From the NCBI GenBank assembly GCA_947476645.1, contig CANJRM010000007.1:686-64685 (forward strand): DNA of 64,000 nt, given 5' to 3'. Made by a program: the position numbers and the translations under genes. Origin of the DNA: Bacteroidota bacterium. Its GTDB lineage: Bacteria > Bacteroidota > Bacteroidia > Chitinophagales > LD1. Every line of letters starts with the position of its first letter. Within the stretch, counting starts at the first letter, position 1. The notes under the pieces are model-generated. The model was given only the letters and a program-made list of their open reading frames with translations, was not told the origin of the DNA and made no database searches. Positions 1 to 64,000 of this stretch are shown in pieces.

Positions 1-194
1 CACTGTTTGGTAATGTGGTGGAGGAATTTGAATATCCTGTTCCTGTAGTGAGCCGTCAAAAAATTAAACAACTTATCAATGACGAAAAAAGAAAGAGAGG
101 TGGATTTATAGAAGCCGATAATGAAGTTGTAATTCCCGAAAAACATTCACTCTTCAACTTCGCCCGAAAAATAAGAGAAAGTTTATTTCAATAA
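1..194 (+). CDS. 3' end of a CDS entering from the left edge, possibly a PhyH-like paralog tail
   Basis: Frame from nt 3 is open to TAA 192-194 (…EEFEYPVPVVSRQKIKQLI…SLFNFARKIRESLFQ*). Resembles the C-terminal tails of the PhyH paralogs at 32.4-35.1 kb. Not in ORF track. Confidence 0.6.
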   Translation, partial: LFGNVVEEFEYPVPVVSRQKIKQLINDEKRKRGGFIEADNEVVIPEKHSLFNFARKIRESLFQ

Positions 195-238
195 TCTGCA
201 CAACCCGAAAACATTCTGTTTAAGGAGTTACAAGTTCA

Positions 239-940
239 ATGAAAGACAATCTGACCATTCAATCGCTCACCATTAGTATTCCTGCGTATAACGACAGTCA
301 GTCGTTGGTTAAGTTAGTAGAAGAGTCTCAAAATCTATGTAAGCAACTCAACTTGAATTTTGAAATGCTGATAATAAATGATGGCAGTCATGATGACACC
401 TTGAAGGTGGCTCATGATTTGGCAAGTAAGTACGGCAATATCAAAATTGTAAACCATGAAAAAAATCTTGGGTTTGGGGAGACACTTAAAAAGGTATTCA
501 TGCTGCCAAAAACTGAATGGGTTCTATTTTTACCGGGAGATAATCAGTTTCCTGTTTCCAATCTCCTTAAGTTTTTGGACATAAAAGATAACTACGATTA
601 CATTCTTGGTTTTAGAAAAGAACGAAAAGATACTGCTAACAGAAAATTGTATTCCTTGTTTTATAACAGCGTGGTTTCTTTTTTATCCGGCTATAAAGTA
701 AAGGATGTAAACAGTATTGTTTTTTATCGCTCAAAAATTTTCGAGACCATTAAACTCAAGGGAAACAGTGCTTTCGTTCATGCCGAGTTTTTTATTCGAA
801 CATCCAAAGCCAATTTCAGAATTACAGAAATGGAAGTGTTGCATCAGGAACGCGAATTCGGTTTCGGGTCGGGCGGTAATTTGAGAGTGGCAATCAACAC
901 CTTCAAAGAACTATTTCTTTATATTGCAGGAAAAATTTGA
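239..940 (+). CDS. GT2 glycosyltransferase, DPM1/polyprenol-phosphate GT-like
   Basis: ISIPAYND, IINDGSHDDT, NLGFG, LPGDNQF; 233 aa, typical of DPM1-like enzymes. Confidence 0.85.
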   Translation: MKDNLTIQSLTISIPAYNDSQSLVKLVEESQNLCKQLNLNFEMLIINDGSHDDTLKVAHDLASKYGNIKIVNHEKNLGFGETLKKVFMLPKTEWVLFLPGDNQFPVSNLLKFLDIKDNYDYILGFRKERKDTANRKLYSLFYNSVVSFLSGYKVKDVNSIVFYRSKIFETIKLKGNSAFVHAEFFIRTSKANFRITEMEVLHQEREFGFGSGGNLRVAINTFKELFLYIAGKI

Positions 941-1349
941 AGTGAATATTAAGATTGAAAAATGTCCGGCTTATCACGATGAAAGGGGTGATTTAATTCA
1001 GTTTGTAACACAACAACTTCTGCAGGAAGAAGCACTCGCCTTCGGTCAGGTTTATCTGCTCACGTTTAATGGGAAAAATATTATTCGCGGAAATCATTAT
1101 CACAACCATTCCAGCGAAATATTCTGTTTGATTTCAGGAAGTGTAGAAATGATTTTTGAAGATGTGCTTACCAAAGAAAGAATACAGAAGGATTTTACCG
1201 CGGATAAAAATGAATTCTTCAGAATTTGTATCGGTGAAAAAATTGCGCACTGCATTAAAAGCAGTTCCGACTTTGCGGTACTCGTTAGTTTTAGTTCCAA
1301 AGAATTCGATATGAATGAGCAGGATAAAATTCTTTACCCGTTGATATGA
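924..1349 (+). CDS. RmlC-like cupin (WxcM/FdtA/CapF-C type nucleotide-sugar isomerase/epimerase)
   Basis: HDERG, IRGNHYH, E-x-F and AHCIK cupin motifs; start uncertain (TTG). Confidence 0.75.
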   Translation: MQEKFEVNIKIEKCPAYHDERGDLIQFVTQQLLQEEALAFGQVYLLTFNGKNIIRGNHYHNHSSEIFCLISGSVEMIFEDVLTKERIQKDFTADKNEFFRICIGEKIAHCIKSSSDFAVLVSFSSKEFDMNEQDKILYPLI

Positions 1350-1352
1350 TGT

Positions 1353-2513
1353 ATGTGTAAATCGAATGTAAAGCAATGGCTCTTTCGCGGAATACTTTTG
1401 GTCATTGTAATCGTAATATGCGAAATTATCGGCTATACCGGTATGTGGCTTAATAGCTGCTCGCTCGATTTTCTATCCACCAAAAACTATTTCAACATTC
1501 GGGCAATGCTGCTTGGAAATAAAGACCCTGAATATTTTCCGCGCTATCTTTCTCTTCCTTACCTCGGATATATTCCATACCCCGGCTATAAAAAACATGA
1601 AGTAGTACAACACAATGAAGATGGATACCGCGGAAATAAAGTGCCTCTCGAAAAAACAGATAAATTCAGAATACTTTGTTTGGGCGGCTCCATTACATAT
1701 GGTTTTGGAGTGGATTCTCCAATCCAAGCATTTCCCGCGCAATTAGAAATTTTAGTAAATAATTATATTCTGAGTGATAGCATTCTTTATAAAAAATATC
1801 ACGGTGCCGAAGTTATCAATGCGGGATTAGAAGGAGGTAATTCAGCTGAAGAATTACAGCAGTATTTATTTAAGTACCGCTACTACCGGGCAGATGCGGT
1901 TATCATACACAGTGGTGTAAACGATGCCTTATTAGTGCGCGATGCAAAACCCGATTTTCAGTTGGATTACACACACTACCGAAGAATTAATTTTCATGCA
2001 GAGCCCTTGCCTCAACCTGCTCGCTGGCTCATGAAATCATACCTCATAAGTTTTTTTACCATTCGTTTGTTCTATCAGAGTTTTGCAGATAACATCGGTG
2101 ATTTATATCAACATCCCGGAGAACAAACCTTTTGTAAATGGTCGAATGTGAATATGGATAGTATAATTGGTAAGCAGCAATATGAACAGTATCCATTTTA
2201 TGAAAACACAAAGAGTTTGTATTCAGAAATTACAAGCGATAGTTCCGTACTAATCGTGTTTCCAAATGCGTTGAATACAAAATTTGTAAAAAGTAAATCT
2301 TACAAAGACTTGTGTTCGTTACATGCTGCCATGTCAAAAAAATTGTGTGCACAAATTGGCGGCACTTACGTTCCGTTTGAATTTGATTCTATTAAAGATG
2401 CTTCGAGTTGGTTAGATGATTGTCATGTAAACGCAAACGGAGAAAAAAATAAAGCGGAAATTTTATTTCCCTTTTTAGTCAAGGTTATGCATCAACGGGC
2501 ACAGAAGAATTAA
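1353..2513 (+). CDS. SGNH/GDSL hydrolase-fold protein with N-terminal membrane anchor
   Basis: LCLGGSITYG, INAGLEGGNS, HSGVND, DDCHVN blocks. Confidence 0.85.
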   Translation: MCKSNVKQWLFRGILLVIVIVICEIIGYTGMWLNSCSLDFLSTKNYFNIRAMLLGNKDPEYFPRYLSLPYLGYIPYPGYKKHEVVQHNEDGYRGNKVPLEKTDKFRILCLGGSITYGFGVDSPIQAFPAQLEILVNNYILSDSILYKKYHGAEVINAGLEGGNSAEELQQYLFKYRYYRADAVIIHSGVNDALLVRDAKPDFQLDYTHYRRINFHAEPLPQPARWLMKSYLISFFTIRLFYQSFADNIGDLYQHPGEQTFCKWSNVNMDSIIGKQQYEQYPFYENTKSLYSEITSDSSVLIVFPNALNTKFVKSKSYKDLCSLHAAMSKKLCAQIGGTYVPFEFDSIKDASSWLDDCHVNANGEKNKAEILFPFLVKVMHQRAQKN

Positions 2514-2545
2514 TTCATTTCATAAAACACCGGACGGTTAATGCA

Positions 2546-3712
2546 ATGCTGCAAGAGAAATTGAAGACCTATACTTTTCGGCTTATTCTGCTTTTAATCG
2601 TTTGTATTGGTTTTGAAATAATAGGTTACTTGGGTATGTGGTTCAGTAGTCAATCGTTCGATTTTTTATCGAACAATAATTATTTCCGTATTCGTGCTAT
2701 GCTCACCGGAAATAAGGACTCGGAATTTCTGCCCCGCTACCTTACGGTTCCTTACCTTGGCTATATTCCTTATCCCGAATACAGAAAGTTTGACGTGGAG
2801 CAACATAACAAAGACGGCTACAGAGGCAATAGGGTGCCGTTGGAAAGAAACAATAAATTCAGAGTGCTTTGTGTAGGCGGCTCTACTACTTATGGCTTTG
2901 GTGTGAACCTGCCTTCCGAAACTTATCCCGCTCAGTTAGAAATCCTGCTGAACAACTTCATTAAGAATGATAGTGTAATCTCAAAAAAATATAGCGGTGC
3001 CGAAGTAATCAATGCCGGATTGGAAGCCGGTAATTCGGCTGATGAGGTGGCACAATACCTGTTTAAATACAGATACTACAAAGCAGATGTAGTACTGGTT
3101 CACAGCGGTGTTAACGATGCCTTTTTGATTAGCCAGAATGACACAAGTTTTCAATTAGATTATTCTCACTACAGACGACTCAACTTTCATTTAGAGCTAC
3201 TGCGGCAGCCGGCTCGCTGGCTATTGAAATCTTACTTCATCAGTTTTCTTTCCATTCGATTGTTCTATAGTGACTTTGCCAATAACACAACCGGCTTTCA
3301 AAACCAGTCGAGTTTTACGATTACTCACTGGACAACTATTTGTATTGATAGTGTGATTGCGAATAAACAATATGAATACTATCCCTATTATCGAAACGAA
3401 AAAAGTTTATACGCTCAAGTCGCTAGCGATAGTTCACGCTTAATGGTATTACCCGGTGTGACTAACAGGAATTCTGATTTTGTTCAAGCGAACAAGAAAT
3501 ACCGCGATATGACAGTGGTCAATTATAACTTGTCGAAAGGGTTGTGTGAAAAAGCGGGCGGTATTTTTGTTCCCTTTTCATGCGATTCTATTAAAGATAC
3601 GGCTTACTGGATTGACGATTGCCATCTCAATGCTGAAGGAGAAAAAAACAAGGCGATGATTTTGCTTCCGCATTTCATAAAAATACTCCACAGCAAAAAA
3701 GAAGAGAAGTAA
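2546..3712 (+). CDS. SGNH/GDSL protein, tandem paralog of 1353..2513
   Basis: LCVGGSTTYG, INAGLEAGNS, HSGVND, DDCHLN; long near-identical blocks shared with upstream gene. Confidence 0.85.
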   Translation: MLQEKLKTYTFRLILLLIVCIGFEIIGYLGMWFSSQSFDFLSNNNYFRIRAMLTGNKDSEFLPRYLTVPYLGYIPYPEYRKFDVEQHNKDGYRGNRVPLERNNKFRVLCVGGSTTYGFGVNLPSETYPAQLEILLNNFIKNDSVISKKYSGAEVINAGLEAGNSADEVAQYLFKYRYYKADVVLVHSGVNDAFLISQNDTSFQLDYSHYRRLNFHLELLRQPARWLLKSYFISFLSIRLFYSDFANNTTGFQNQSSFTITHWTTICIDSVIANKQYEYYPYYRNEKSLYAQVASDSSRLMVLPGVTNRNSDFVQANKKYRDMTVVNYNLSKGLCEKAGGIFVPFSCDSIKDTAYWIDDCHLNAEGEKNKAMILLPHFIKILHSKKEEK

Positions 3713-3730
3713 ATATATGATATAAACCAT

Positions 3731-4990
3731 GTGATGAAGAATAGCAGAAATGAAAATATTTTACGGAAAGGTAGGATTGCAAATTGGCAGTTAGTGCCGC
3801 TGAGCATTCTTACACTTTATCTTTTTTTAGAGTTGCTTACTTACGTACTCATTTGTGCCGGAGTTTTAAGACCTGACTTTAACTCCCTTTTAAAAAATTT
3901 CGGAGCCTCTGATAAACCATACGCTCACTTTGACAGCACCTCCGGTTATAAATATAGCGGTCACCTTCCTCATCTGACGAATATACACGATGGTCGAATT
4001 GTATATGACCACGCCATGCCGGTAAACAACAACGGGTATTGTTCAATTTATGATTACAGCTACAAGAAAAAAACGGGCTGTCAACGCTGGATGGTTTTTG
4101 GAGATTCTTATACAGCCGGAGAAATTACCGATACCACCTGGGTTGATTTATTTCAAAAAGGACTTAACAGGGATTCTATAGAGTTTTATAATTTCGGTTT
4201 GGAAGGAGCAGGAATAAGCAACTGGCATTCGATTTTTTTCAAAGAAGTGGTTCCGCAATATGAGTTTGACGGAGTAGTTTTGGCGGTGTTTGGCGATTTA
4301 CGCTCTACTTCTTACGACCTTACACGCGATTTTATTATTAAACATTCCTTCGTTGATTACTCCGGATTAAATTTTTTTCCTACCCTGCCTGAAACTTTCA
4401 ATCGTTTTGAAGAAGAATACAAGGAACAGTTATTTTATGAATCTTCTATTTATAGTGCGGACAGAATTGAAGGGTACAGAGCAAAACTAATTTCACCCGA
4501 AAAGCAAGATTTCTGTTTTAAGTTATTTCCTCCCAAATGGTATTTCTCGAAATATTTAAGCGATGCGTTTCAATTTATTCGGAAATACAATTCCTTCCAA
4601 AAAAAATATGCGAGTAAAGACCTGGATGCAAATGTTCTCAATGGTTCCTATAAAGCAGAAGTAGATTACACCAAATTATTCGGCAAAGAAAAAATGCAAA
4701 AGACAATCGATATTTTAAACTATTGCCGCGACCACAACAAAAAGATATATCTCATTTCTATTCCTTCTTACAACATCGTGAAACAGGATTCTTTATACTA
4801 TCACAACAATCTCTACAATCGTCATTTGAAACAATTAACCGAACAATATCATTGCGGTTTTTTTGATGGCTATGAATTATATGATTCAATACCGCGTGAC
4901 CATCGCGACAAATTTATCTTGTATCATGATTCACACTGGAACCGGAAAGGGATAGATTTATTTGTAAAAATTCTTTCTCGGAAAAGATGA
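3731..4990 (+). CDS. SGNH/GDSL protein with N-terminal TM helix
   Basis: VFGDSYTAG, YNFGLEGAG, HDSHWN. Confidence 0.8.
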   Translation: MMKNSRNENILRKGRIANWQLVPLSILTLYLFLELLTYVLICAGVLRPDFNSLLKNFGASDKPYAHFDSTSGYKYSGHLPHLTNIHDGRIVYDHAMPVNNNGYCSIYDYSYKKKTGCQRWMVFGDSYTAGEITDTTWVDLFQKGLNRDSIEFYNFGLEGAGISNWHSIFFKEVVPQYEFDGVVLAVFGDLRSTSYDLTRDFIIKHSFVDYSGLNFFPTLPETFNRFEEEYKEQLFYESSIYSADRIEGYRAKLISPEKQDFCFKLFPPKWYFSKYLSDAFQFIRKYNSFQKKYASKDLDANVLNGSYKAEVDYTKLFGKEKMQKTIDILNYCRDHNKKIYLISIPSYNIVKQDSLYYHNNLYNRHLKQLTEQYHCGFFDGYELYDSIPRDHRDKFILYHDSHWNRKGIDLFVKILSRKR

Positions 4991-5060: not shown

Positions 5061-6641
5061 GTGTCAGCTATTTTATCCTATTCTCTTTCGGCTTACAAAA
5101 AAGATTTCGGCAAAGAGCAGCTCCTGCATTTGCTCAGGCGCTCCCTGTTTGGTGTAGGGTTTAAAGAGTTTAATTCATTTAAAGGTAAAACGCTGGAACA
5201 GTGCCTGGATATTTTACTTAAGCAATCGGCACTGTCACCACCGGTTATTCAGGGTGATAACGAATTGAAAGATGCATTGGTGCCGGAGGGAACTACATGG
5301 GTTAATACGCCTTTTGAAAACCCACAGATAGATACCCGCAGAAGACTGATGCTGAAAATGTGGTGGGTGGAGCACATTGTAAACCGCGATTTGTCGCTTA
5401 CTGAAAAGATGACTTTGTTCTGGCACAATCATTTTGTAACCGAAATGGATATTGTGAAAGACAGCCGCTATTCATATCGCTATGTGGCTATGCTGCGCAA
5501 TCATGCACTCGGAAATTTTAAACAGCTGGTGAGAGAAGGTACCACCAATGTGGCTATGCTGGTTTATCTCAATGGAAATAACAACAGCAAAGCAGCGCCT
5601 AACGAAAATTTCAGCCGCGAGTTGATGGAGCTTTTTACTATTGGTAAAGAAGGAGGTCCGCATTATACTGAAGAAGATGTGCAGGCAGCCGCACGAGTGC
5701 TTAGCGGATGGAAGGACGACAAAGAAAGTATTACTGCTAAGTTTTATCCCGAACTGCATGACAGCGGTGATAAAAAATTCTCTTCGTATTTTGAAGAGGA
5801 AGTAATTAAGGGTAGAAACGGAGTGGATGGGGTGCAGGAAATAGATGCGCTGGTGGAGATGATTTTTAAGCGTAGAGAAACAGCAAAGTTTGTGTGTCGC
5901 AATTTATATCGGTGGTTTGTAATGGCGCATATTGATGAACAAGCCGAACGCAATATTATTGAACCCTTAGCGCAGATTTTTATTGACCATCACTTTGAAA
6001 TTGCACCTGTGTTGCGCGCGCTTTTGGGCAGCGAACATTTTTTTGACGCGGCTTTTACCGGATGCATTGTCAAGAATCCTGTAGAGTATTTTTTAGGGAG
6101 CATGCAGCAGTTTGATATTCTGTTTGCTTCTAAGCTGGCGGGCAATCATGAAATATGGATTGACTTTTACGTGTACTTAGGTTTCATGTCTATGGATATT
6201 GGTAATCCGCCTTCGGTGGCGGGATGGCCTGCTTATTATCAGCCGCCTAAGTTTCACCAGTGGTGGATTAATTCTTCTACTTTAAGTTTGAGGGCGAAAG
6301 TTTTAAATGACCTGTGCACCAAAGAAGGACTGTTCTTTAACGGAAGTTCGTTTAACTTTAATTTTCTGCCTTTTGTAAAACAGTTTGATGAACCTGCTGA
6401 TGCCGATAAATTAACCACCGATGCCGTGCAGTTTTTGTGTGCTGCAAAAGTGAGTGCTGCGGAAAAAGAAAAACTTATGGAGGTGTTGAACAATGGTGTA
6501 GAGCAGCGAAAAGATTGGAAAGAAGCTTGGACACGTTACAGCATTGATTCCGGTGATACAGCGAATACAGGGTTAGTGGAAGAGCGGTTGCGCTTGTTTT
6601 TCAAACGGGTGATTAATATGCCCGAGTATCAAATGATGTAG
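5061..6641 (+). CDS. DUF1800 family protein (copy 1)
   Basis: HLLRR, EKMTLFWHNHF, PNENFSRELMELFT, PPSVAGWPAYY, PEYQ end. Confidence 0.9.
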   Translation: MSAILSYSLSAYKKDFGKEQLLHLLRRSLFGVGFKEFNSFKGKTLEQCLDILLKQSALSPPVIQGDNELKDALVPEGTTWVNTPFENPQIDTRRRLMLKMWWVEHIVNRDLSLTEKMTLFWHNHFVTEMDIVKDSRYSYRYVAMLRNHALGNFKQLVREGTTNVAMLVYLNGNNNSKAAPNENFSRELMELFTIGKEGGPHYTEEDVQAAARVLSGWKDDKESITAKFYPELHDSGDKKFSSYFEEEVIKGRNGVDGVQEIDALVEMIFKRRETAKFVCRNLYRWFVMAHIDEQAERNIIEPLAQIFIDHHFEIAPVLRALLGSEHFFDAAFTGCIVKNPVEYFLGSMQQFDILFASKLAGNHEIWIDFYVYLGFMSMDIGNPPSVAGWPAYYQPPKFHQWWINSSTLSLRAKVLNDLCTKEGLFFNGSSFNFNFLPFVKQFDEPADADKLTTDAVQFLCAAKVSAAEKEKLMEVLNNGVEQRKDWKEAWTRYSIDSGDTANTGLVEERLRLFFKRVINMPEYQMM

Positions 6642-6686
6642 TAAATGATTTTGAATTTTATTTGCATTCAAGCTAAAGTGTAAAGC

Positions 6687-8267
6687 ATGTCGGCAGTTTT
6701 ATCGTACAGTCTGGCACCGGTAAGCGGTGTGCTAAAGCAGGAAGATTTACTGCATTTGCTCAGGCGTACTTTGTTTGGCGCAGGGCATCGGGAGCTTACT
6801 TATTTCAAAAATAAAACAGTAGAGCAGTGTTTAGATATTCTGCTCAAACAATCGCCTGCTGCGCCAGCACCGCTGCAAGACGACCCCGACATACAGGATG
6901 CGCTGGTGCCCGATGGCTCTAGCTGGGTGAACGCGCCTTACGAAAATGAGGACATGGACAAGCGCAGAAGAACTTATTTGAAAGCGTGGTGGATGGGGCA
7001 AATCATCAACCGCGATTATTCGCTGAGCGAAAAGATGACGCTGTTCTGGCACAATCACTATGTAACTCAACTGGAGATTGTGAAGGATAGCCGCTATGGG
7101 TACCGCTATGTAACTATGCTGCGCGCTCATGCCCTGGGCAACTTTAAGCAACTGGTGCGCGAGGGGGCTACGAACGTGGCTATGCTGGTATATCTCAACG
7201 GCAACAACAACAGCAAGGGGGCCCCCAATGAAAATTTCAGCCGCGAGTTGATGGAGCTTTTTACATTGGGTAAAGCGCCCGATGTGCATTATACCGAAGC
7301 CGATGTGAAAGCAGCAGCGCGGGTGCTCAGCGGTTGGAAAGATGACCGCGAAAGTATTACTGAAAAATTTTACCCCGAACTGCACGACACTGCCGACAAA
7401 CAATTTTCGCCCTACTTTAATAATGAAATTATAAAGGGCAGAAGCGGAGCCGATGGCGCTAAAGAAATTGATGCGCTGCTCGATATGATTTTTAAGCGAA
7501 AGGAAACTGCTGAGTTTGTGTGCCGTAATTTATACCGTTGGTTTGTTACCGCGCGTATAGATGAACAGGTGGAACAAAAAATTATTCAACCCTTAGCGCA
7601 AATTTTTATTCAGCATCATTTTGAAATTGCTCCTGTACTTCGCGCGCTGTTGGGGAGTGAACATTTTTTTGATGCGGCTTTCCGGGGGTGTATTGTCAAA
7701 AACCCCGTGGAGTTTTTTGTGGGGGCTACCAAACAGTTTGCTATTGTTTTTCCTGAAAGCACTATCGAAACTCACCTGTGCTGGGCGCATTACTATTTTA
7801 ATATAGGTGGCTTGAGTATGAGTATTGGTGACCCGCCTTCGGTTGCGGGCTGGCTGGCCTATTATCAGGCGCCTAAGTACCATCAGTGGTGGATTAATTC
7901 GTACACCTTGGGTTTTAGAATGAAAATTGCCGAAAGCTTGTACTTAGCCGAGGGCACTAACTGCAACGGACCGAAAATAAAATTTGATTACCTGCGGTTT
8001 GCTTTGGCTTTTAAAAATGGAGGTGATGTAAATAAATTGGTGGACGAAAGTTTAACTGTGTTGTGTGCGGTGAAGATAAGTGACCACGCCAAAAATAAAT
8101 TGAAAGCAATCCTGTTGAAAAATTTGAAAAGCGAAAAAGATTGGAGTGATTTGTGGAGTAAACTTTCAGCCACACCAAACGATGCTTCAGTAAAAGAAGA
8201 TGTTTCGAACCGGTTAAGATTATTTTTTGGCGGCATTATGAATATGCCCGAATATCAAATGATGTAG
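6687..8267 (+). CDS. DUF1800 family protein (copy 2)
   Basis: Same motifs and same 526 aa length as copy 1. Confidence 0.9.
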   Translation: MSAVLSYSLAPVSGVLKQEDLLHLLRRTLFGAGHRELTYFKNKTVEQCLDILLKQSPAAPAPLQDDPDIQDALVPDGSSWVNAPYENEDMDKRRRTYLKAWWMGQIINRDYSLSEKMTLFWHNHYVTQLEIVKDSRYGYRYVTMLRAHALGNFKQLVREGATNVAMLVYLNGNNNSKGAPNENFSRELMELFTLGKAPDVHYTEADVKAAARVLSGWKDDRESITEKFYPELHDTADKQFSPYFNNEIIKGRSGADGAKEIDALLDMIFKRKETAEFVCRNLYRWFVTARIDEQVEQKIIQPLAQIFIQHHFEIAPVLRALLGSEHFFDAAFRGCIVKNPVEFFVGATKQFAIVFPESTIETHLCWAHYYFNIGGLSMSIGDPPSVAGWLAYYQAPKYHQWWINSYTLGFRMKIAESLYLAEGTNCNGPKIKFDYLRFALAFKNGGDVNKLVDESLTVLCAVKISDHAKNKLKAILLKNLKSEKDWSDLWSKLSATPNDASVKEDVSNRLRLFFGGIMNMPEYQMM

Positions 8268-8269
8268 CT

Positions 8270-9532
8270 ATGAAAAGAAAAACCTTCATTAAAAATGCAG
8301 CGCTTACGGCTTTATTGCCTTATGCCCTCAATGCCCTTACTGCCTGTAACCACCTGGCTGGCGGCAGAAAAAACCGTGTGCTGGTGCTTATTCAATTAGT
8401 GGGTGGTAACGATGGATTGAACACCCTCATTCCATTAGACCAATACAAAAACCTGTTGAAGGCGCGGCCTAATCTGCTTATACCCGAAAATAAAATTTTG
8501 CCGCTCAACGGTTTTTCGAATGTGGGTTTGCACCCCGGCTTAGGTGGTATAAAAGATATGTTCGATAATAAGCTGGCGGGTTTTGTGCAGGGTGTGGGTT
8601 ACGAAAACCCCAGCTATTCGCATTTTCGTTCTTCCGATATATGGCTTACGGGTTCAGAATCTTCCAAAGTGCTTTACACCGGCTGGATGGCGCGCTATCT
8701 CGAAACTATTTTCAACGGTTACCCAAAAGGTTTTCCAAATGCTGCCCACACCGACCCGCCTGCTATTAAAATTGGCGACACCGGCACCTATCTTTTTCAG
8801 GGCACCAGTATGGATATGAGTATTGTGATTGACCCTTCCACTCCTTTTGAAGCACCCGATGTAGATACGGATGCAGGAGAAACCGATAGCTTTGCGGGGC
8901 AGGAAGTAAAAAGTATTCGTGAAATTTTGCTGCAAACCAATAAGTATGCTTCGGTTCTAAAAAAGGCGTTGGGCACTTCTGTTGAGCATTCAAAACTGTA
9001 TCCTAAAGAAGGAACCAATCCTTTAGCCGACCAACTGAAGGTTGTAGCTAAACTCATAAAAGGCGGACTGCAAACGCAGGTTTACTTAGTTGATTTGAAG
9101 GGGTTCGATAATCACGATGAGCAAGCGGATAAGAAAGACCCTACGAAGGGCGCTCATGCCGATTTGATGGCGCAACTTAGCCAGGGCATCACTTGTTTTT
9201 GGGACGATATGAATCGTATAGGTCGCGAGCAGGATGTAATGGGAATGACCTTTTCGGAATTTGGCAGAAGAATAATGGCTAACGCAGGCAACGGCACCGA
9301 CCACGGCTCCTCACAGCCCCTATTCTATTTTGGGGCAAACGTGCACGCGGGCATTACGGGCAGCAATCCGGTTATTAATGACAACATTACTGCTAACGAT
9401 AATCTGGCTTTGCAATACGATTACCGCGCGGTGTTTGGTTCGCTCTTAAAACAATGGGCGGGTGCTTCGGCTGCTGCAGTTAGTGAAGCACTGCCGGGGA
9501 ACTTTCCGGAAATAAAAATTTTTAATTCGTAA
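8270..9532 (+). CDS. DUF1501 family protein with Tat-like/lipoprotein signal
   Basis: LVLIQLVGGNDGLN, SHFRSSDIW, GFDNH, SEFGRR, GTDHG; N-terminal KRKTFIK…LTAC; usual partner of DUF1800. Confidence 0.9.
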   Translation: MKRKTFIKNAALTALLPYALNALTACNHLAGGRKNRVLVLIQLVGGNDGLNTLIPLDQYKNLLKARPNLLIPENKILPLNGFSNVGLHPGLGGIKDMFDNKLAGFVQGVGYENPSYSHFRSSDIWLTGSESSKVLYTGWMARYLETIFNGYPKGFPNAAHTDPPAIKIGDTGTYLFQGTSMDMSIVIDPSTPFEAPDVDTDAGETDSFAGQEVKSIREILLQTNKYASVLKKALGTSVEHSKLYPKEGTNPLADQLKVVAKLIKGGLQTQVYLVDLKGFDNHDEQADKKDPTKGAHADLMAQLSQGITCFWDDMNRIGREQDVMGMTFSEFGRRIMANAGNGTDHGSSQPLFYFGANVHAGITGSNPVINDNITANDNLALQYDYRAVFGSLLKQWAGASAAAVSEALPGNFPEIKIFNS

Positions 9533-9554: not shown

Positions 9555-10367
9555 ATGGAAATAAAATACCTGAATGAAGACTGCGAAAAAATTTCCAAGC
9601 GTTGCGATTTAGAATTCGGCAAAGAAATTATTCCCTTAACGCCTGCCAACAATTTACTGAACAGCGACCCTTCGCTTAATACGAACGGCTTTGGATTGTT
9701 TACGCTGCGCAAACCCGAAACATTCACCGCATTAGAACAATACATAACGGGCTACATTCAACAGCAACTTGGTATTTATCAGGAACCGGTGAAGGGTTTT
9801 GAACTGTGCCGTTATCATCAATATTTGCAACAGGAAGAAACGCACTATAAAATATCTACCTGGGGGTTGGAATATCAAATGCTGGGCAATGCCTTTTACG
9901 AAATTCTACAGCAAGCCGAAGACCTGCTGCAATTGAAGTTGAAAGTGAAAAAGATAAATCACCTGGGTAAGGAAGGCGATTATGTGGGGTTCCGCATTTT
10001 ACGCCCGCTGAGAAATGACCACAATCCTTTTCACCGCGATGCCTGGCTGCCTTACTGGCGCGATACCGTGAACGTGTGGTTGCCTATTTGCGGTTTTGAA
10101 AACGGCAATACCCTGCAACTGATTCCTAAAAGTCATTTATGGAGCGATGACCAGATTTTAAAAACAAAAATAGGTGCCGAAATAGAGGGTAAAAAATATC
10201 ATGTGCCCGCGGCTATAGGCACAGTCAATAATTTCAGCATTGAAACTCCGGTATTAAAAAAAGGCGATGGACTTATTTTTTCTCCGTACCTTATACATGG
10301 CAATGGCAGAAACCATAAAACAGATGAAACAAGAGTTTCGCTGGAGTTTAGGTTTTGCAAAGCATAA
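9555..10367 (+). CDS. PhyH-like Fe(II)/2OG dioxygenase
   Basis: HRD, NVWLP, PKSH, LIHG, RVSLEFR. Confidence 0.85.
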   Translation: MEIKYLNEDCEKISKRCDLEFGKEIIPLTPANNLLNSDPSLNTNGFGLFTLRKPETFTALEQYITGYIQQQLGIYQEPVKGFELCRYHQYLQQEETHYKISTWGLEYQMLGNAFYEILQQAEDLLQLKLKVKKINHLGKEGDYVGFRILRPLRNDHNPFHRDAWLPYWRDTVNVWLPICGFENGNTLQLIPKSHLWSDDQILKTKIGAEIEGKKYHVPAAIGTVNNFSIETPVLKKGDGLIFSPYLIHGNGRNHKTDETRVSLEFRFCKA

Positions 10368-36762: not shown

Positions 36763-36764
36763 AC

Positions 36765-49930: not shown

Positions 49931-49935
49931 AGCTG

Positions 49936-52879: not shown

Positions 52880-52919
52880 AAAATAAAGTTCCCTATTTTG
52901 CCGCTTTAAACAGAACACC

Positions 52920-58833: not shown

Positions 58834-60690
58834 TTACGCCATCACAGGTAAAATATACCTCGAAGAAGACTCCACTACCCTAAAGGCAATGTACTCAGGC
58901 GCATGGGTATCGAGGTCGTGCAGCATACCCACCATAGGTGCCTGCAAAGCCATAGCTATAAGAATATCTTCGGTTATGTTATCAGTCAAATGAATTTTCA
59001 CATTTTCGAAATTGGTTTTATAGAATTCTAATTTCGTTTGTTTTTCATTGGCAGTAAGGGGTTCCATTTTTGCCAAATGGTTTTCAATGCGGTTATACAA
59101 TTCAGCTCGCATTTCATTTATTTCGCCCACCGGCAATTCGGTTCTTTCAATAAATGAAGATTGAAGCAAGGGCTGCACGGCCACTTCTTTAGCACCAATA
59201 CCAATATACCGCAGTAGTTTATTTAATCCGGTTCCGTGTTTTGCTTTATATCCTTCGGGGTTTTCGAGGCTTTCCCAGGCTTCCAGCAAAAATTGCTTGT
59301 CTCCTTTCGACCAGCTACTAAAATATTTTACATAAAGCGGGTCACCAAAATAATAAGAAAACTCCCCCTTACGTGCCACCCGAATAGATTCCAACACATC
59401 AATTAAAAGCAAAAATCGTTGTTTACGTTTCTCCAGGGTACTTTCCTTCGACTCCCAGTGGCCAAGCAAGCCCGAAAGATTAGTTACCATACCCGGTTTA
59501 TCGTGTTCATATTTGGCATTGGGTCCAAAAGCATTGGCGGTTACATGGCTCAGTACATTCGGGTTTTTGATAAACCATTGCAATGTTTCATCAAAGTCAG
59601 CATCGCTTTCAGTAGGGTAACCGTAAATAATCCAGCTCTCTGTTTTTATGCCTTCGTTGGCAAACATGCGGCACATTTTATCGGCATCGTCATACCGCGA
59701 TGACTTACCCATTTCTTTTTGCACCCGCGAGGAAAAACTTTCTACCCCCAGCGAAACACTTTGCATACCGCTTCTGCGCAGTTTATTTAAAAACGGCTGT
59801 GTAATCAATCGCTCCACCCGCGTGCCATACACACTCCACGGCATCACCAACCCTTCGGCTATCACCAGGTCGCAATACTCATCTAACTGCCGCATGGTTT
59901 TAGAAGAAATCAATGAATCATCATTGAACATATACTCCGTAATGTTGTATTTCTTAACGTGGTGTTTCAGTTCGTCAAACACATTTTGACCTCCGCGCGA
60001 GCGCTGTGTAAGATGGTTCCATTTGTTTTCGCAATAGTTGCAATTGAGAATACACCCTCTTGAAAAAAGAATAGGTAATTTATGAGGGCTTGGATAGGCA
60101 TTCCTGTCAAAATCGGTAAAATCAGGATAGGGAATAGCATCAATATTTTGCAGATTCGTGTGCCCGGTATAAACATATTTACCGGCAGGGTCTTTCATCC
60201 AAAGCTGCTTTAATTTGCCAAAGTCACCCTTTTGTTCGTAGCATTTTACAAACTCAACCAAAGCGGCTTCGCCTTCGCCTTCTATTACGTAATCTGAAAA
60301 CGTAAGCGCCTCCTGAATGCATCCCATGTTTTCGCGGGTAAGGCTGGGTCCACCGCTCACTAGCATAACCTCCGGCAATAGTTTGCGCACTTCTTTAGCT
60401 ACCAGTGCCGAGTTCCGAAGATTAGAACCCAAAAGACTGAATCCTACCACAGCAGGTTTCTCATCGCAAATTTGTTTCGCCCAGTTTTTATAAAGCTCCG
60501 GATGTGCAGCTATGTATTCTTCGGCACCGCGGTCGCCCAATGCCGAAACCATGAACGGTCGAAACTGAATGGAAAAATCAATGCATTTGCATTCGTAGCC
60601 CGCGTGCTGCAAACTGCCTTTTAAAAAAGCAAGTGCTAAATTGGGCGTAACCGATTCCCACACCGGAGCTAAGGCAAGAACTACTTTCAT
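58834..60690 (-). CDS. B12-binding-domain radical SAM enzyme with C-terminal extension
   Basis: PNLALAFLKGSL, SGGP, EGEGE, SRGCILNCNYC, GVES. Confidence 0.9.
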   Translation of the reverse strand: MKVVLALAPVWESVTPNLALAFLKGSLQHAGYECKCIDFSIQFRPFMVSALGDRGAEEYIAAHPELYKNWAKQICDEKPAVVGFSLLGSNLRNSALVAKEVRKLLPEVMLVSGGPSLTRENMGCIQEALTFSDYVIEGEGEAALVEFVKCYEQKGDFGKLKQLWMKDPAGKYVYTGHTNLQNIDAIPYPDFTDFDRNAYPSPHKLPILFSRGCILNCNYCENKWNHLTQRSRGGQNVFDELKHHVKKYNITEYMFNDDSLISSKTMRQLDEYCDLVIAEGLVMPWSVYGTRVERLITQPFLNKLRRSGMQSVSLGVESFSSRVQKEMGKSSRYDDADKMCRMFANEGIKTESWIIYGYPTESDADFDETLQWFIKNPNVLSHVTANAFGPNAKYEHDKPGMVTNLSGLLGHWESKESTLEKRKQRFLLLIDVLESIRVARKGEFSYYFGDPLYVKYFSSWSKGDKQFLLEAWESLENPEGYKAKHGTGLNKLLRYIGIGAKEVAVQPLLQSSFIERTELPVGEINEMRAELYNRIENHLAKMEPLTANEKQTKLEFYKTNFENVKIHLTDNITEDILIAMALQAPMVGMLHDLDTHAPEYIAFRVVESSSRYILPVMA

Positions 60691-60747: not shown

Positions 60748-61647
60748 TTACACCTGCTTCGTAAATTTTCGCGCAATAGTATGATGAAGTTGAAGTCCCG
60801 ATTTTTTATAAAGACCTTTCGAAAGAAAATAAAGCAGATAGAACGGGTTCACCATAAAAATAAACATGGGGTAAAATATGCCTTCAATAAATATGTTCAT
60901 GAAATATAAAATACCGATGTGCATACTGGTAAGCAGCAAACCATAAATAAAAGAGCGCAGTTTGTTTTTCACCGCCAACCAGGCAAACAGTTCTAAAAAA
61001 AGAGTAAAGGCAAAAAGAAGTTTGGCAAAAAACGGATGTGCTAAAAGAACATCCACTTTACTTAAACCTTCATTTAAAAAAGAGATGTCTCCGGTATCGA
61101 AATAACTGAAACCGTAATTTTTTATGATTTGAATAGAAGCTAAAGGGGCATCGGTAATCCAACCTAATCCCGATTCGGTTAATTTAGAAATACCGGCAAG
61201 CATATACCCTGCGGCAATCATTTGAATTGGAAATTGAATCCGTTCTGTTTTATGCGAAGGACTGTTTCTGAAATAAGCAACTGCCTGCACCAGAAAGATG
61301 AGCGTATACAACGTATTTCGATTCAGAATGCCGCTCGACTCTTCTAAAGTGAATACCACCAAGCTCATCAGGCACATGAGCGAGGTAACCACGACCATCT
61401 TTTTTTCCAGTATATACAGTAAGGCAAGCAAAAGGGTGGTAAAGTAAAAACCATAGTAAATATGCCAGGTCACTAAAAAACTACAATCAAAGAGAGAACA
61501 TATACCACTGGGATAGGGTACTGATTCGTGACTAAAGGTAGAAATACCAATAGCACCTACCCAGCACCAGCAGAAGGATATCTTAAGAATAATCCATTCT
61601 GCGTTAGTATACTGCTGGAAAAATTTATGGTCGAATAGCTTTTTCAT
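60748..61647 (-). CDS. HTTM-like membrane protein
   Basis: PYPSGIC, GYMLAGISKL…GLGW, LFLEL, MHIGI. Confidence 0.65.
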   Translation of the reverse strand: MKKLFDHKFFQQYTNAEWIILKISFCWCWVGAIGISTFSHESVPYPSGICSLFDCSFLVTWHIYYGFYFTTLLLALLYILEKKMVVVTSLMCLMSLVVFTLEESSGILNRNTLYTLIFLVQAVAYFRNSPSHKTERIQFPIQMIAAGYMLAGISKLTESGLGWITDAPLASIQIIKNYGFSYFDTGDISFLNEGLSKVDVLLAHPFFAKLLFAFTLFLELFAWLAVKNKLRSFIYGLLLTSMHIGILYFMNIFIEGIFYPMFIFMVNPFYLLYFLSKGLYKKSGLQLHHTIARKFTKQV

Positions 61648-62056
61648 ACATCAAATCATCTCGATATAAAAGTTTTCCGTTTTTCAAATAGTAATATCTT
61701 TTGTAAAGGCATAAACTGTCAAAACTGGAATTTCGAAAGTCTTCATTTCGCAAAAGCATATCGGTTAATTCCCTGCCAGCTTGTTTTAATAGCACCGAAT
61801 CTTCCTTGCCAAAACCAAAGCTATATCCATGATAATGGCAAAAAGCACCAAAAGCATGTGCGGTATACCCGGCATTTTTCCCCGCTGAAAATTTTTTATA
61901 AAACGGCAGGATATCGCCTTGCTCGTTCTTTACAAAAAAAACGTATCCGTAATTGATGAAAGAATTATACATGGGAAACAGGGAAAAGGGATGGAACTCT
62001 TTTCTTATAAGCAGCGAAGAAATAATGTAAAGCAGAAGCAAAATATACGCTTTCAT
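61625..62056 (-). CDS. Small membrane-anchored protein, partner of the HTTM-like gene
   Basis: KEFHPFSLFPMY, KNAGY, GKEDS, YRDDL; tandem paralog of the next gene. Confidence 0.7.
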   Translation of the reverse strand: MKAYILLLLYIISSLLIRKEFHPFSLFPMYNSFINYGYVFFVKNEQGDILPFYKKFSAGKNAGYTAHAFGAFCHYHGYSFGFGKEDSVLLKQAGRELTDMLLRNEDFRNSSFDSLCLYKRYYYLKNGKLLYRDDLMYEKAIRP

Positions 62057-62123
62057 AAAATGTAAAAACCGGCAAGGAATAAAAGAAATCCGAACATTTT
62101 TTTTCTAAAATACAATCTTACCC

Positions 62124-62555
62124 TTACTGCTTCAAGGGCCTTTCGCCAATCAGGTCATCTCTGTAATGTAATTGATTGTTCTCTAAACTGTAAAATCTTT
62201 TATAAAGCCGTAATGTATCGAAATTGAATTTAGCCTGATTTTCATCCTTCAATATCATGGTTATTAATTCATTGCCCGCTTCCTTTAATTGAGCAGAATC
62301 TTCCTTACCAAAACCATATTGATAGTTATGGAAATTAAAAAAAGAAGAATAGGTATGGGTAATGTATCCGGCATTTTTATTCTCCGAAAAATTTTTTCCG
62401 AAGGAAACAATCTCCCCTTTTTCATTTTTTAAATAAAAAACATAAGCCCAGTTTGGAAATGCGCAATACATGGGAAACTTAGAGAAAGGATGAAATTCTT
62501 TCCCAACCCAAAAGGTTAAAATGATATACGAGATAAGTAGTAAATACTTTGTCAT
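62124..62555 (-). CDS. Small membrane-anchored protein, tandem paralog (143 aa)
   Basis: KEFHPFSKFPMY, KNAGY, GKEDS, YRDDL. Confidence 0.7.
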   Translation of the reverse strand: MTKYLLLISYIILTFWVGKEFHPFSKFPMYCAFPNWAYVFYLKNEKGEIVSFGKNFSENKNAGYITHTYSSFFNFHNYQYGFGKEDSAQLKEAGNELITMILKDENQAKFNFDTLRLYKRFYSLENNQLHYRDDLIGERPLKQ

Positions 62556-63120
62556 AATTATTCAAAACTATTTTAAAAGCGCAAGCTTTAAGATGTTAAC
62601 CGAAATCGGAAACAAATAAGGGAATAAACAGAACAAAACAATAAAAAAGAAGTTGCGCTCTTAATTTATGGCGCCCCTGTGGTTCACAATTGGAGAAAAA
62701 TTTATCTGTTTTTTAATCCATTGGGTGGACACATTTGCCTAACAAATGCGACAGTTCAATGTATTTGCAATGCCCGTTTTTATTTTCGCACGCAACGATA
62801 GTTGGGGAATTCTGCCCCTGCATTTATCCATGTAAGAATTATAGCGCATGGGCTTTAAACCAGTTATTTGCTTTTTCCTGTACTGGTTGCATATGTTGCT
62901 CCTAAGTAATTTTTGAAATTGTGGCGTAAGGTTTGTTTGTACCACATGTTTGATGTGTATTCAAACGAATAAATAATGGATAATGACAGGAATTACTTTT
63001 TGCCAGTCTCTTTTTCTCGGTTTCCTTCTATTGCAAAAAATTATTCGCATGGTTTGCAGCAATAATTCTTAATCACCTAATTTAAATGATTAATTTAATT
63101 ATCCCCCTTTGAAAAAAATC

Positions 63121-63152
63121 ATTGACATAAAGGAAATAATGTTTTAAATTTG
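63121..63152 (+). promoter_or_regulatory. Bacteroidota -33/-7 promoter
   Basis: ATTG (63121-63124), 20-nt spacer, TAAATTTG (63145-63152), then ATG at 63176. Confidence 0.55.
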
Positions 63153-63175
63153 TCTCGTTCACTTAAACAGGAAAC

Positions 63176-64000
63176 ATGTTAGCTGCTACTTTTAAAAACC
63201 CGAAATTAGAACTGGAACTGAACGATAGGGGTTTTGTAGTTATTCCTGGGTTCTTACCTAAAGAAGATATTGAGCGGCTTTTGACTTTGTATAAAACAAA
63301 TCATGCCGAACGGCTGATAGGTTGTTGGAACAGTCTTTATGATTTACCCGTGGGTTCAGGCGAAGAAATTTCGGCTCAAATAAGAGCCGTAACCGAGCCG
63401 CATTTAGACAAACTGTTTAACGACTGGCAATTTCCTTCGGCACTTTTTATTGTAAAAAATCCGGGACAGAATCATGAGAGTTTAGTGCACCGCGATGATA
63501 CCATGCATGATGAAAACGAATTACAGTATCGTCAATGTTGGGTGCCGTTGGTTGACTTAACTACTGAAAACGGTGCGTTGTATATGGTACCCAAAAGCCA
63601 CAAGCTTTTTACTGACAGCCGTCCTATGTTTGCCAAATGGCCTTACGAACATTTACGACCACGTTTGGAGCGCGAGTTTCACACCATATATGCTAAGGCA
63701 GGAGATCTGATAGTTTACTTAGACAAAACGTTACACGGGTCTTATAAAAATACAAGTTCAGATACACGTCCTGTTTTCCAGGGAGGTATCATGCATAAGG
63801 ATGCACACCCTTTATATACCCGCTACATAGCCGAGCGCAATGAGGTAGAAATATATGAGGTTGACCCGCAGTTCTTTTTCAATAAAGAATACATGAATCC
63901 GGTGGTGAACCCTAAATACCCTTTGATAAAAGTGGAGAAGTATACCAGCACCGAAATTACCGAAGCAGAACTGGATGAATTTTTTGGTAATCCAGAACAC
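63176..64000 (+). CDS. PhyH-like Fe(II)/2OG dioxygenase, 3' truncated by window edge (absent from ORF track)
   Basis: MLAATFKNPKLELELNDRGFVVIP…VHRDD…CWVPLVD..ENGALYMVPKSH…TLHGSYKN…R; open for 275 codons. Confidence 0.88.
   Translation, partial: MLAATFKNPKLELELNDRGFVVIPGFLPKEDIERLLTLYKTNHAERLIGCWNSLYDLPVGSGEEISAQIRAVTEPHLDKLFNDWQFPSALFIVKNPGQNHESLVHRDDTMHDENELQYRQCWVPLVDLTTENGALYMVPKSHKLFTDSRPMFAKWPYEHLRPRLEREFHTIYAKAGDLIVYLDKTLHGSYKNTSSDTRPVFQGGIMHKDAHPLYTRYIAERNEVEIYEVDPQFFFNKEYMNPVVNPKYPLIKVEKYTSTEITEAELDEFFGNPEH

Follow-up and report, generated by a model that had tools for sequence, protein, structure and literature searches.

Bacterial O-antigens, teichoic acids and S-layer glycans are made in ABC-dependent pathways (Wzm/Wzt, TagGH). 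Moenomycin (moe), an isoprenoid-anchored oligosaccharide, is made with amidotransferases, a carbamoyltransferase, a B12 radical S-adenosylmethionine (SAM) methylase and glycosyltransferases (GTs) and leaves by ABC export, and in this it resembles the locus described here. Terpenoid glycosides of the phenalinolactone type, which share with it their later tailoring by Fe(II)/2-oxoglutarate (Fe/2OG) oxygenases and by methyl, glycosyl and acyl transfer, offer a further parallel. In PMC11317874, the UbiA-family enzyme PlaT3 uses geranylgeranyl diphosphate (GGPP), showing that a UbiA enzyme can open a bacterial terpenoid glycoside pathway. We analyzed 64,000 nucleotides (the window) of contig CANJRM010000007.1 of a Bacteroidota bacterium (GCA_947476645.1; here G000:C7:686-64685). 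The genome (3.56 Mb, 90% complete) has type IX secretion system (T9SS) cargo genes, and its close relatives are titled Bacteroidetes/Chitinophagales. We found that a UbiA-family prenyltransferase gene, a SAM methyltransferase gene and an ordered array of PhyH-type Fe/2OG oxygenase genes occur together across Bacteroidota and form the core of an apparently undescribed pathway. A literature search, whose coverage mostly leaves out subscription papers, found no description of the gene set. As its product we favor, with about an even chance, a polyprenyl-anchored (probably C20) glycolipid that is oxidatively tailored and exported by an ABC transporter.

A first-pass annotation, made from the letters of the window, had counted 14 Fe/2OG domains, 8 radical SAM enzymes and 6 SGNH proteins, and our Pfam and NCBIfam scans (54 and 51 window open reading frames (ORFs), respectively) returned exactly these numbers, with intact motifs. 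The Fe/2OG domains lie in 13 genes, named here by their first coordinate, and comprise ten PhyH domains (9555, 30670, 32460, 33344, 34221, two in 35047, 38072, 38927 and 63176), two AspH (11535 and 15168), one JmjC (14074) and one WelO5-like domain (31480). The HxD...H ligands and the 2OG Arg are intact in nine aligned PhyH domains, and 9555 shows HRD. Sorting of 371 PhyH domains from the loci yielded orthogroups in the constant order E-G+C-B-D-A, which is kept across loci titled Chitinophagales, Crocinitomicaceae and Saprospiraceae; the array is often followed by the methyltransferase, Wzt, the WelO5-like gene and two reversed PhyH genes. This fixed order suggests that the orthogroups would act as distinct steps on one shared substrate. 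Orthogroup E, the first gene of the array (G000:C29:9779-10729, L001), has HQN for HQD in 37 of 38 members, which, to judge by the alignment, makes its iron site unusual yet conserved. The nearest solved relatives of the PhyH proteins are MysH, SnoN, EvdO2 and SnoK, at weak similarity (E 1e-9 to 1e-5), and window proteins match weakly to the NCBIfam 'sporadic carbohydrate cluster' oxygenases. In G000 the E, G+C, B, D, A set lies on contig C29 (46-74% identity to orthologs), and the PhyH proteins of the window are mostly accessory (26-49%), with 38927 reaching 76% to group J. The window had been read as one unit; it is a lineage-specific, accessory expansion, the conserved six-domain PhyH set of G000 being on C29 (five PhyH genes, DegT) and Wzm, Wzt and two methyltransferases on C1. 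Other pieces of the pathway are on C21 (a UbiA-GT4 fusion) and C97 (B12 radical SAM, MBOAT/AlgX, Wzy_C). Given that C29 (5 genes) is the only other contig of the genome with PhyH-type genes and that none of 14 control genomes gave a PhyH match, the PhyH density of the window is not due to chance.

To describe the distribution of the core, we used 121 genomes of the order and six queries, and called PhyH-rich those with at least five PhyH matches at E 1e-10 (n = 33); some of the 121 overlap the methyltransferase-scan loci described below. The UbiA subfamily was found in 33/33 PhyH-rich genomes versus 6/88 others, the methyltransferase in 32/33 versus 4/88, the N-terminal-twitch radical SAM enzyme in 25/33 versus 4/88 and the WelO5-like enzyme in 19/33 versus 0/88. 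In mixed families UbiA and methyltransferase were present together in 1 of 10 (f66) and 3 of 10 (f11) genomes, the pattern tracking within the family, and in whole families the system was near-universal (10/10 and 9/9 genomes sampled). Whole families thus carry the pathway, which probably defines the cell surface of these lineages. Among 18 genomes drawn from the same genus, 14 had PhyH and 15 twitch radical SAM matches, and in a phylum-wide draw of 300 genomes at least 3 besides G000 carry the system, with at most 7 candidates scored per genome. In G335 the array lies with GT2, GT4 and GT32-like genes, and in G397 (L137, G397:C7:40001-60000) the genes for UbiA, the methyltransferase and PhyH are all in fragments next to insertion sequence (IS)-like ORFs. 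The G017 cluster extends over ~140 kb (roughly 323-462 kb), its right end lying at purN/mreB-like genes, and its scanned genes add DprE-type, Wzy_C, MBOAT/AlgX, GT9, arylsulfotransferase, carbamoyltransferase and DUF6056 proteins. Co-location of the family set in other Bacteroidota, which had been put forward as a check, is conserved.

Searching with only the methyltransferase turned up 198 relatives, of which the best 80 were analyzed (loci of 1.9-21 kb). All 80 were from metagenome-assembled genomes and titled Bacteroidota save one Henriciella and two 'uncultured bacterium'. These loci contained PhyH in 69 cases (at least three in 53) and UbiA in 48 (directly downstream in 30), followed by Wzt-type ABC (42), Wzm (36), AsnB (23), GNAT (23), KAS III (22), GT8/32-like (22), WelO5-like (20), twitch radical SAM (19) and carbamoyltransferase (18) genes; B12 radical SAM (8), GT-C-like (8), AspH (5) and HTTM-like (2) genes were rare. 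A conserved 290-residue protein with an NVD motif (family F6; L103, L072, L079, L067), found in 23 of the 80 loci, had no Pfam or PDB match and is possibly a new GT-A glycosyltransferase.

The UbiA protein has seven transmembrane (TM) segments, and N66, D70, D74, D197 and D201 are invariant in 25/25 sequences; position 67 is E or D, and position 194 is Q, H, Y or N, never D among its four commonest residues. As given in PMC9835599, UbiA prenyltransferases carry motif I NDxxDxxxD and motif II DxxxD, and UbiA-type cyclases (EriG, Fma-TC, Tps1A) carry motif I NxxxG/AxxxD and motif II QDxxDxxxD. By its motifs the window UbiA is of the prenyltransferase, not the cyclase, pattern. A UbiA-type terpene cyclase as a hidden scaffold enzyme was therefore rejected, position 70 being D in 25/25, with the proviso that bacterial cyclase variants may differ. 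The first-pass annotation had listed UbiA as a tailoring prenylase in a cluster with no visible scaffold enzyme; as the tightest partner of the oxygenase array, UbiA is instead itself a scaffold candidate. Its matches to several subfamilies were weak and below cut-off, and its single PDB match was 4TQ3 (E 0.0012). The nearest solved relatives of the methyltransferase are PDB 3BUS (RebM), MitM and a D-glucose O-methyltransferase. Core families are also fused to one another: PhyH-UbiA-TPR and PhyH-GT4-GT2 in Nostoc sp. C052, UbiA-GT4 in G000 (C21) and other genomes, UbiA-GT4-SGNH, PhyH-methyltransferase and PhyH-WelO5. The C21 fusion (G000:C21:18213-25433, L149) is the second UbiA of this subfamily in G000; its neighbours are a LuxE-like gene, a TPR-bearing membrane protein and two membrane ORFs without annotation.

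Halogenation had been raised as a possibility, and the WelO5-like halogenase motif proved real. The 31480 protein aligns over its full length with WelO5 (PDB 5IQS, 5J4R, 6GEM; E 2e-30) and keeps HxG (H176-C-G178), the distal His274, the 2OG Arg and an equivalent of what we take to be Ser189 in WelO5 numbering. Including it, 34 distinct relatives comprise 22 HxG, 2 HxA, 7 HxE and 3 HxD forms, the HxE and HxD forms (10/34) being hydroxylase-type. The 31480 enzyme is a halogenase candidate and a predicted chlorinase. The WelO5-like query had no match among plasmids.

The eight radical SAM enzymes, all with CxxxCxxC, divide into four B12-binding (12320, 17335, 29165, 58834) and four with an N-terminal SPASM/twitch domain (44099, 45658, 47112, 50121). 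Against the NF033640 cut-off of 170 bits, 44099 scored 173.2, 47112 176.8 and 50121 382.9, and 45658 remained below at 151.7. Phages also carry distant homologs of 50121 (22-24% identity): we found them in 21 records, 19 from Vibrio phages, at up to four places per genome (e.g. MG752970.1, AY283928.2). The six SGNH proteins have GxS, a C-terminal DxxH and one to three N-terminal hydrophobic segments; a PDB profile search gave no clue to their specificity, and the three at 1353-4990 likely serve in periplasmic acyl transfer or hydrolysis, as far as the sequences tell. Membrane or amphipathic anchors, which had been ascribed to many of the enzymes, were borne out by hydrophobic segments in the SGNH, UbiA, methyltransferase, one AspH and the JmjC proteins and were not in the PhyH and WelO5-like proteins, none of which has a TM segment; several of their C-termini look amphipathic, at a score that unrelated proteins also reach. 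The GT2, cupin, flippase-like, Wzt, UbiA, methyltransferase and GT32-like DxD genes are as first described (Pfam). Missing from that description were two GT-C-like membrane proteins, 26230-27996 and 18967-20670. The AlphaFold2 (AF2) model of 26230 (pLDDT 78.6) matched ArnT in Foldseek (E 2.6e-4, probability 1.00, TM-score about 0.4), followed by PglB/STT3/DPY19; its sequence had no Pfam match, and among the Atlas neighbours of its family PMT_2, YfdI_N and GT87 lie on 21-45% of members. On this model, 26230 and its paralog 18967 look like GT-C transferases. The model of 60748 (pLDDT 91.5) superposed on the membrane domain of the vitamin K-dependent carboxylase with VIA Z 11.7 and a root-mean-square deviation of 5.1 over 242 aligned residues, the next unrelated structure scoring Z 5.5; the Foldseek E value was only 0.58. 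At 299 residues the protein is without the lumenal domain; K155, W163, E219 and H243 are invariant in the family alignment. Neither 60748 nor 25331 had a Pfam HTTM match, and a profile comparison with one bacterial VKGC-like protein gave a probability of 1%. By predicted fold, 60748-61647 and 25331-26230 look HTTM-like. HTTM-like genes with small partners exist in three copies (24526-26230, 60748-62555 and C7:64726-66022, L005), and Pfam HTTM proteins recur near UbiA in G364, G179, G387 and L076. The Wzt protein matched TagH (E 3e-50) and Wzt/RfbE (E 4e-42) below the equivalog cut-offs; it had no Pfam match to a carbohydrate-binding Wzt-C domain, and PF14524 was matched in one relative (E 3.7e-4) and in Methylomagnum ishizawai (4e-8). 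Wzm lies outside the window, on C1 and C9. The N-domain of 42083-44095 was called GT8-like by motifs that we presume to be diagnostic, and it had no GT match in the PDB profile search.

The core is also found outside Bacteroidota. With the window UbiA, tblastn against plasmids returned two records, M. ishizawai and Nostoc sp. C052. Plasmid pRS11DPr1 of M. ishizawai RS11D-Pr (NZ_AP019784.1), a cultured methanotroph, carries the same core in one orientation: GT2, a flavoprotein, three GT4/GT2 proteins, an epimerase, a polyprenyl synthase, twitch radical SAM, AsnB and UbiA, then GT8-like+GT4, Wzm, Wzt, methyltransferase and PhyH, and finally transposases and a sulfotransferase. Its proteins matched the Bacteroidota profiles at E 8e-74 (UbiA), 1e-69 (methyltransferase) and 8e-52 (PhyH). 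Besides the two PhyH fusions named above, Nostoc plasmid pC052_D encodes Wzm/Wzt, a sulfotransferase and a methyltransferase-GT4 protein. Scanning metagenomes with the Methylomagnum UbiA clade yielded 27 loci, several near-duplicates and 24 at 54-71% GC, in which we counted AsnB 21, PhyH 11, Wzm 9, polyprenyl synthase 3 and WelO5-like (HxA) 1. A polyprenyl synthase thus lies within the core at four loci outside the low-GC Bacteroidota set (M. ishizawai and the 3 metagenome loci), and in these synthases the residue five positions ahead of the first Asp-rich motif is small, which we take to be a mark of a C20 or longer product.

In the glycolipid pathway that we favor, UbiA would act first by transferring a polyprenyl group (probably geranylgeranyl) onto a small acceptor, and GT4, GT8-like and GT32-like enzymes would extend the product. 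At the cytoplasmic face the ordered PhyH set, which may oxidize the chain or the sugars, would decorate it together with the methyltransferase, the WelO5-like predicted chlorinase, which may incorporate halide, and the twitch and other radical SAM enzymes. A Wzm/Wzt or MsbA-type ABC transporter would flip the decorated lipid outward, presumably for display in the envelope, and SGNH, GT-C and HTTM-like proteins would act outside, in predicted periplasmic acylation and further sugar transfer. The GT-C fold together with Wzt points to a lipid-linked, flipped intermediate, and the GT-C, Wzt, SGNH and UbiA genes fit the earlier suggestion of a membrane-bound glycan or lipid substrate. The bolder version, which we think unlikely as a whole, is an undescribed class of geranylgeranyl-anchored envelope glycolipids across Bacteroidota, cyanobacteria and proteobacteria whose isoprenoid is hydroxylated stepwise by at least six ordered PhyH enzymes, methylated, chlorinated, flipped by Wzm/Wzt and displayed at the surface. 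If this is true, organochlorine lipids would have a widespread source in the environment, and glycan assembly based on undecaprenyl phosphate would have an alternative that UbiA initiates.

Several observations weigh against the glycolipid. The nearest solved PhyH and methyltransferase relatives include sugar-acting enzymes, and the frequent neighbour genes (DegT, KAS III, GNAT, WbpG-like, carbamoyltransferase and AsnB) are typical of O-antigen loci, so that much of the gene list would also suit a surface glycan of the ordinary kind. UbiA could be assigned to no characterised subfamily; G030 and G354 have UbiA with Wzm/Wzt and GTs and no PhyH match, G378 keeps UbiA-GT-methyltransferase with just one PhyH match, and 32/80 methyltransferase loci are without UbiA in the fetched DNA (many short or split). 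The methyltransferase family is not exclusive, matching an Acaryochloris plasmid in a context typical of ribosomally synthesized and post-translationally modified peptides (RiPPs). No polyprenyl synthase is present in the window or in any fetched Bacteroidota cluster locus, so housekeeping enzymes must supply the prenyl donor there, two candidates being encoded on C83 and C12. Furthermore, the five-match threshold was chosen after seeing the data (at four or more matches UbiA is in 35/38), related genomes are not independent, and the profiles were built partly from G000 and its relatives. A somewhat doubtful but serious rival is an O-antigen-like or protein-linked glycan on undecaprenyl diphosphate, exported by Wzm/Wzt, whose sugars or N-acyl groups would be modified by the oxygenases, radical SAM enzymes and methyltransferase, the methyltransferase capping the chain and UbiA adding only a side decoration. 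In many loci Wzm and Wzt bracket the PhyH array and the methyltransferase often directly precedes Wzt. The surroundings of the G017 cluster (DegT, KAS III, GNAT, WbpG-like, carbamoyltransferase, AsnB, sulfotransferases, GT9, Wzy_C, MBOAT/AlgX, DprE-type) have the same flavor, as do the sugar-acting PhyH relatives, the weak 'sporadic carbohydrate cluster' matches and the weak Wzt_C matches in relatives; both C97 and the extended G017 cluster encode Wzy_C proteins. We had rated this Wzm/Wzt-centred reading somewhat above even and lowered it after mapping Wzm in the 121 genomes: Wzm is found in 30/33 PhyH-rich genomes and also in 44/88 others, and at E 1e-30 had no match in the remaining three PhyH-rich genomes, G364, G335 and G397, of which G364 and G335 are 99-100% complete. 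In G364, whose genome is 100% complete, the array is accompanied by methyltransferase, UbiA, WelO5-like, twitch radical SAM, SGNH and HTTM genes and by an MsbA-type ABC transporter; the annotated genes of this cluster include no nucleotide-sugar GT. Nor was a WecA/WbaP-type initiator seen among Pfam-scanned cluster genes, although whole genomes were not searched for one.

A secreted meroterpenoid or moenomycin-like prenyl glycoside, serving as antibiotic or signal, whose synthesis UbiA would start and which the ABC transporter would export, seems quite improbable to us. WelO5 acts on free small molecules, and amidotransferase, carbamoyltransferase, B12 radical SAM and PhyH oxygenases are enzyme classes in common with moenomycin and the orthosomycins, both of which we take in its favor, together with the compact, GT-poor minimal clusters of G364, G335 and G358, the two plasmid carriers and an overlap in enzyme classes with phenalinolactone (GGPP synthase, UbiA; PMC11317874). 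It is opposed by the lack of a class II cyclase in G000, G017, G335 and G310 and of a flavin epoxidase in the window, by a UbiA without cyclase motifs, by an ATPase of the TagH/Wzt polymer-flippase type, and by near-universal inheritance within families and GT-C/SGNH periplasmic partners, which look like envelope biogenesis. More improbable still, for the locus as a whole, is a patchwork hot spot of envelope genes in which PhyH, methyltransferase-UbiA-GT-twitch radical SAM, B12 radical SAM/GT-C/AspH and SGNH modules have no shared substrate. The modules of G000 are indeed scattered over C7, C29, C1, C21 and C97, the B12 radical SAM, GT-C-like, AspH and HTTM-like genes are rare around the methyltransferase, and the window has ~10 passenger genes; yet the core is tied together by cross-module fusions, joint presence and absence, and joint decay in G397. 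For the B12 radical SAM/GT-C/AspH block at 11535-30604 the patchwork explanation probably holds. Hopanoid or sterol tailoring was considered and rejected, no squalene-hopene or oxidosqualene cyclase (SHC/OSC)-type gene being found in 4/6 carriers tested: PF13243 was not found in G000 (90% complete), G017, G335 and G310, and G011 and G364 have a ~735-residue match outside the fetched clusters. The G021 cluster contains a 339-residue, single-domain SQHop_cyclase_C-like gene (L128:15699-16715, E 9e-8), which was not found with that query in five other carriers, in a search that had no positive control.

The absence of a polyketide synthase (PKS), non-ribosomal peptide synthetase (NRPS), cyclase, PqqD/RRE or C39 peptidase, noted at first sight of the window, held in our scans, and no known core synthase was found in the flanks or genome or among the scanned genes of the G017 cluster, which is bounded by housekeeping genes. 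Modular PKS were not found in G000, where ketosynthases were only stand-alone frames of 369-448 residues on other contigs, and neither were NRPS condensation domains, at 90% completeness. RiPP features (precursor, RRE/PqqD, maturation peptidase) had no Pfam match in the 54 window ORFs and were absent among the recurring neighbour families of the methyltransferase loci; 24 short ATG ORFs in 14 window gaps showed no leader-like repeat by eye. Rfam gave 0 matches at gathering scores, and no RNA holder was listed for 39991-45661. A recent horizontal island was rejected, the GC content of the window (40.7%) equalling that of the genome (40.8%). The cluster had been described as open at both edges. 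This is true of the left edge: 685 bases of C7 precede the window, and the contig starts within a further PhyH gene. The right end lies ~2.6 kb outside the window, the last genes being an HTTM-like pair and a sulfotransferase; a heavy-metal P-type ATPase and a Crp-type regulator (read from translations) follow. The coordinates of the features are given in the table. About 10 window genes lie outside the recurring set. The tandem DUF1800 paralogs and DUF1501 are probably passengers; homologs also occur near PhyH genes in G028 (L028) and near UbiA in G021 (L144). The others include a T9SS-sorted kelch protein (20821-23349, +), with homologs also within the G017 cluster, a lipoprotein-like ORF, a HepT/MNT-type toxin-antitoxin pair (55910-56549, -; Pfam), a protein with a peptidase S74 tail (56811-58811, +) and ORFs at 54303-55822. 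Among the latter, two overlapping ORFs in different frames (54823-55822, +), preceded by a 92-residue ORF and without Pfam match, have a seven-G run (55314-55320) in their overlap and are possibly one frameshifted or phase-variable gene. The five-heme cytochrome (27989-29155) has homologs in 2/80 related loci.

Table. Features of the window, with position, strand and the basis of each assignment.
Feature	Coordinates	Strand	Basis or remark
GT2, polyprenol-phosphate glycosyltransferase-like	239..940	+	PF00535; best NCBIfam ArnC/DPM-type, below cut-off
FdtA/WxcM-like sugar cupin	924..1349	+	Pfam
Three membrane-anchored SGNH proteins (1353-2513, 2546-3712, 3731-4990)	1353..4990	+	PF13472; GxS, DxxH, one N-terminal TM each
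Two DUF1800 and one DUF1501	5061..9532	+	Pfam; not among families listed from the 80 methyltransferase loci
Divergent PhyH-type Fe/2OG oxygenase, HRD	9555..10367	+	Pfam, motif
AspH-family oxygenase, OlsC/LpxO-like (related to lipid hydroxylases)	11535..12293	-	OlsC E 1.9e-31, far below cut-off
B12-binding radical SAM enzyme	12320..13891	-	Pfam, NCBIfam, motif
JmjC/Cupin_8 oxygenase	14074..15066	+	Pfam
AspH-family oxygenase with C-terminal TM	15168..15950	-	Pfam, NCBIfam
LPG_synthase_TM flippase-like protein	16066..17118	-	Pfam, NCBIfam
B12-binding radical SAM enzyme	17335..18951	+	Pfam, NCBIfam
Multi-TM protein, GT-C-like by family	18967..20670	+	paralog of 26230
Small partner (24526-25365) and HTTM-like membrane protein (25331-26230)	24526..26230	+	family alignment; fold of paralog 60748
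Predicted GT-C-fold membrane glycosyltransferase	26230..27996	+	AF2 model, Foldseek
Multiheme cytochrome c, five CxxCH, membrane-anchored	27989..29155	-	Pfam, motif
B12-binding radical SAM enzyme	29165..30604	-	Pfam, NCBIfam
PhyH-type oxygenase, HQD, accessory group	30670..31485	+	Pfam, alignment
WelO5-like carrier-independent halogenase candidate	31480..32397	-	PF22814 E 2.9e-59; PDB WelO5 alignment
Accessory PhyH paralogs: five domains in four genes (32460, 33344, 34221 and the double 35047)	32460..36762	+	Pfam, alignment
Wzt-type polysaccharide ABC ATPase, C-terminal extension	36759..38051	+	NCBIfam TagH/RfbE best, below cut-off
Two PhyH oxygenases (38072-38926; 38927-39856, orthogroup J)	38072..39856	-	Pfam, orthogroups
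Core SAM methyltransferase, N-terminal TM	39991..40908	+	PDB relatives, co-occurrence profile
Core UbiA-family prenyltransferase, N[ED]xxDxxxD and HQxxDxxxD; proposed scaffold initiator	40910..42082	+	motifs, profile
Two-domain GT: GT8-like N-domain, GT32-like DxD C-domain	42083..44095	+	Pfam
Three N-terminal-twitch radical SAM enzymes (44099-45661 +, 45658-47112 -, 47112-48758 -)	44099..48758	mixed	NF033640
Membrane-anchored SGNH protein	48629..49984	-	Pfam, motif
N-terminal-twitch radical SAM enzyme	50121..51413	+	NF033640, 382.9 bits
Two membrane-anchored SGNH proteins	51671..54185	+	Pfam, motif
B12-binding radical SAM enzyme	58834..60690	-	Pfam, NCBIfam
HTTM-like protein (60748-61647) and two small partners (61625-62056, 62124-62555)	60748..62555	-	AF2, fold match
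PhyH oxygenase, HRD, orthogroup K; its last 27 bases lie outside the window	63176..64000	+	Pfam, orthogroups

All of the enzyme classes, UbiA initiation and ABC-flipped lipid-linked glycans are already known singly. The gene set is found in many aquatic bacteria, and aquatic Bacteroidota lineages, almost all of them uncultured, devote large loci to it (64 kb here, ~140 kb in G017). Its C-H-activating enzymes are a large and so far untapped resource, with ordered PhyH orthogroups including the HQN variant and WelO5-type halogenase candidates that give natural HxG/HxA/HxD/HxE pairs, and the N-terminal-twitch radical SAM family, a family of unknown function, is here placed in a genomic context for the first time. 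The cultured methanotroph has the minimal version on a plasmid, where a single PhyH and a single methyltransferase are joined by a polyprenyl synthase of its own, so that the chemistry can be tested directly.

Compared with the phenalinolactone (PlaT1-PlaT4), brasilicardin and tiancilactone pathways (PMC11317874), the role proposed here for UbiA resembles that of a GGPP-using UbiA enzyme as the first committed step, and a polyprenyl synthase in the cluster recurs in M. ishizawai and 3/27 metagenome loci. The window differs from them in being without a class II cyclase or flavin epoxidase, and the present system in having 5-19 PhyH matches per genome as well as a WelO5-type enzyme, Wzm/Wzt-type export and GT-C/SGNH periplasmic partners. 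With ABC-dependent glycan pathways it shares a Wzt with C-terminal extension, Wzm, an adjacent methyltransferase, GT2/GT4/GT8-like enzymes and amino-sugar and amidation genes; unlike them, it includes some complete carriers in which Wzm was not found, UbiA is a constant partner, also fused to GT4, the oxygenase array is conserved and accompanied by a halogenase candidate, and no initiating phosphoglycosyltransferase was seen among the scanned cluster genes. Moenomycin differs in that its anchor is made by non-UbiA prenyltransferases, its pathway has no oxygenase array and the product is a secreted Streptomyces antibiotic. Unlike WelO5/AmbO5, 31480 sits in a glycosyl and prenyl transfer cluster without indole-alkaloid genes. 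With SnoK/SnoN, EvdO2 and MysH the PhyH proteins share the fold family and the HxD...H triad, whereas here they form at least six ordered orthogroups, one with HQN.

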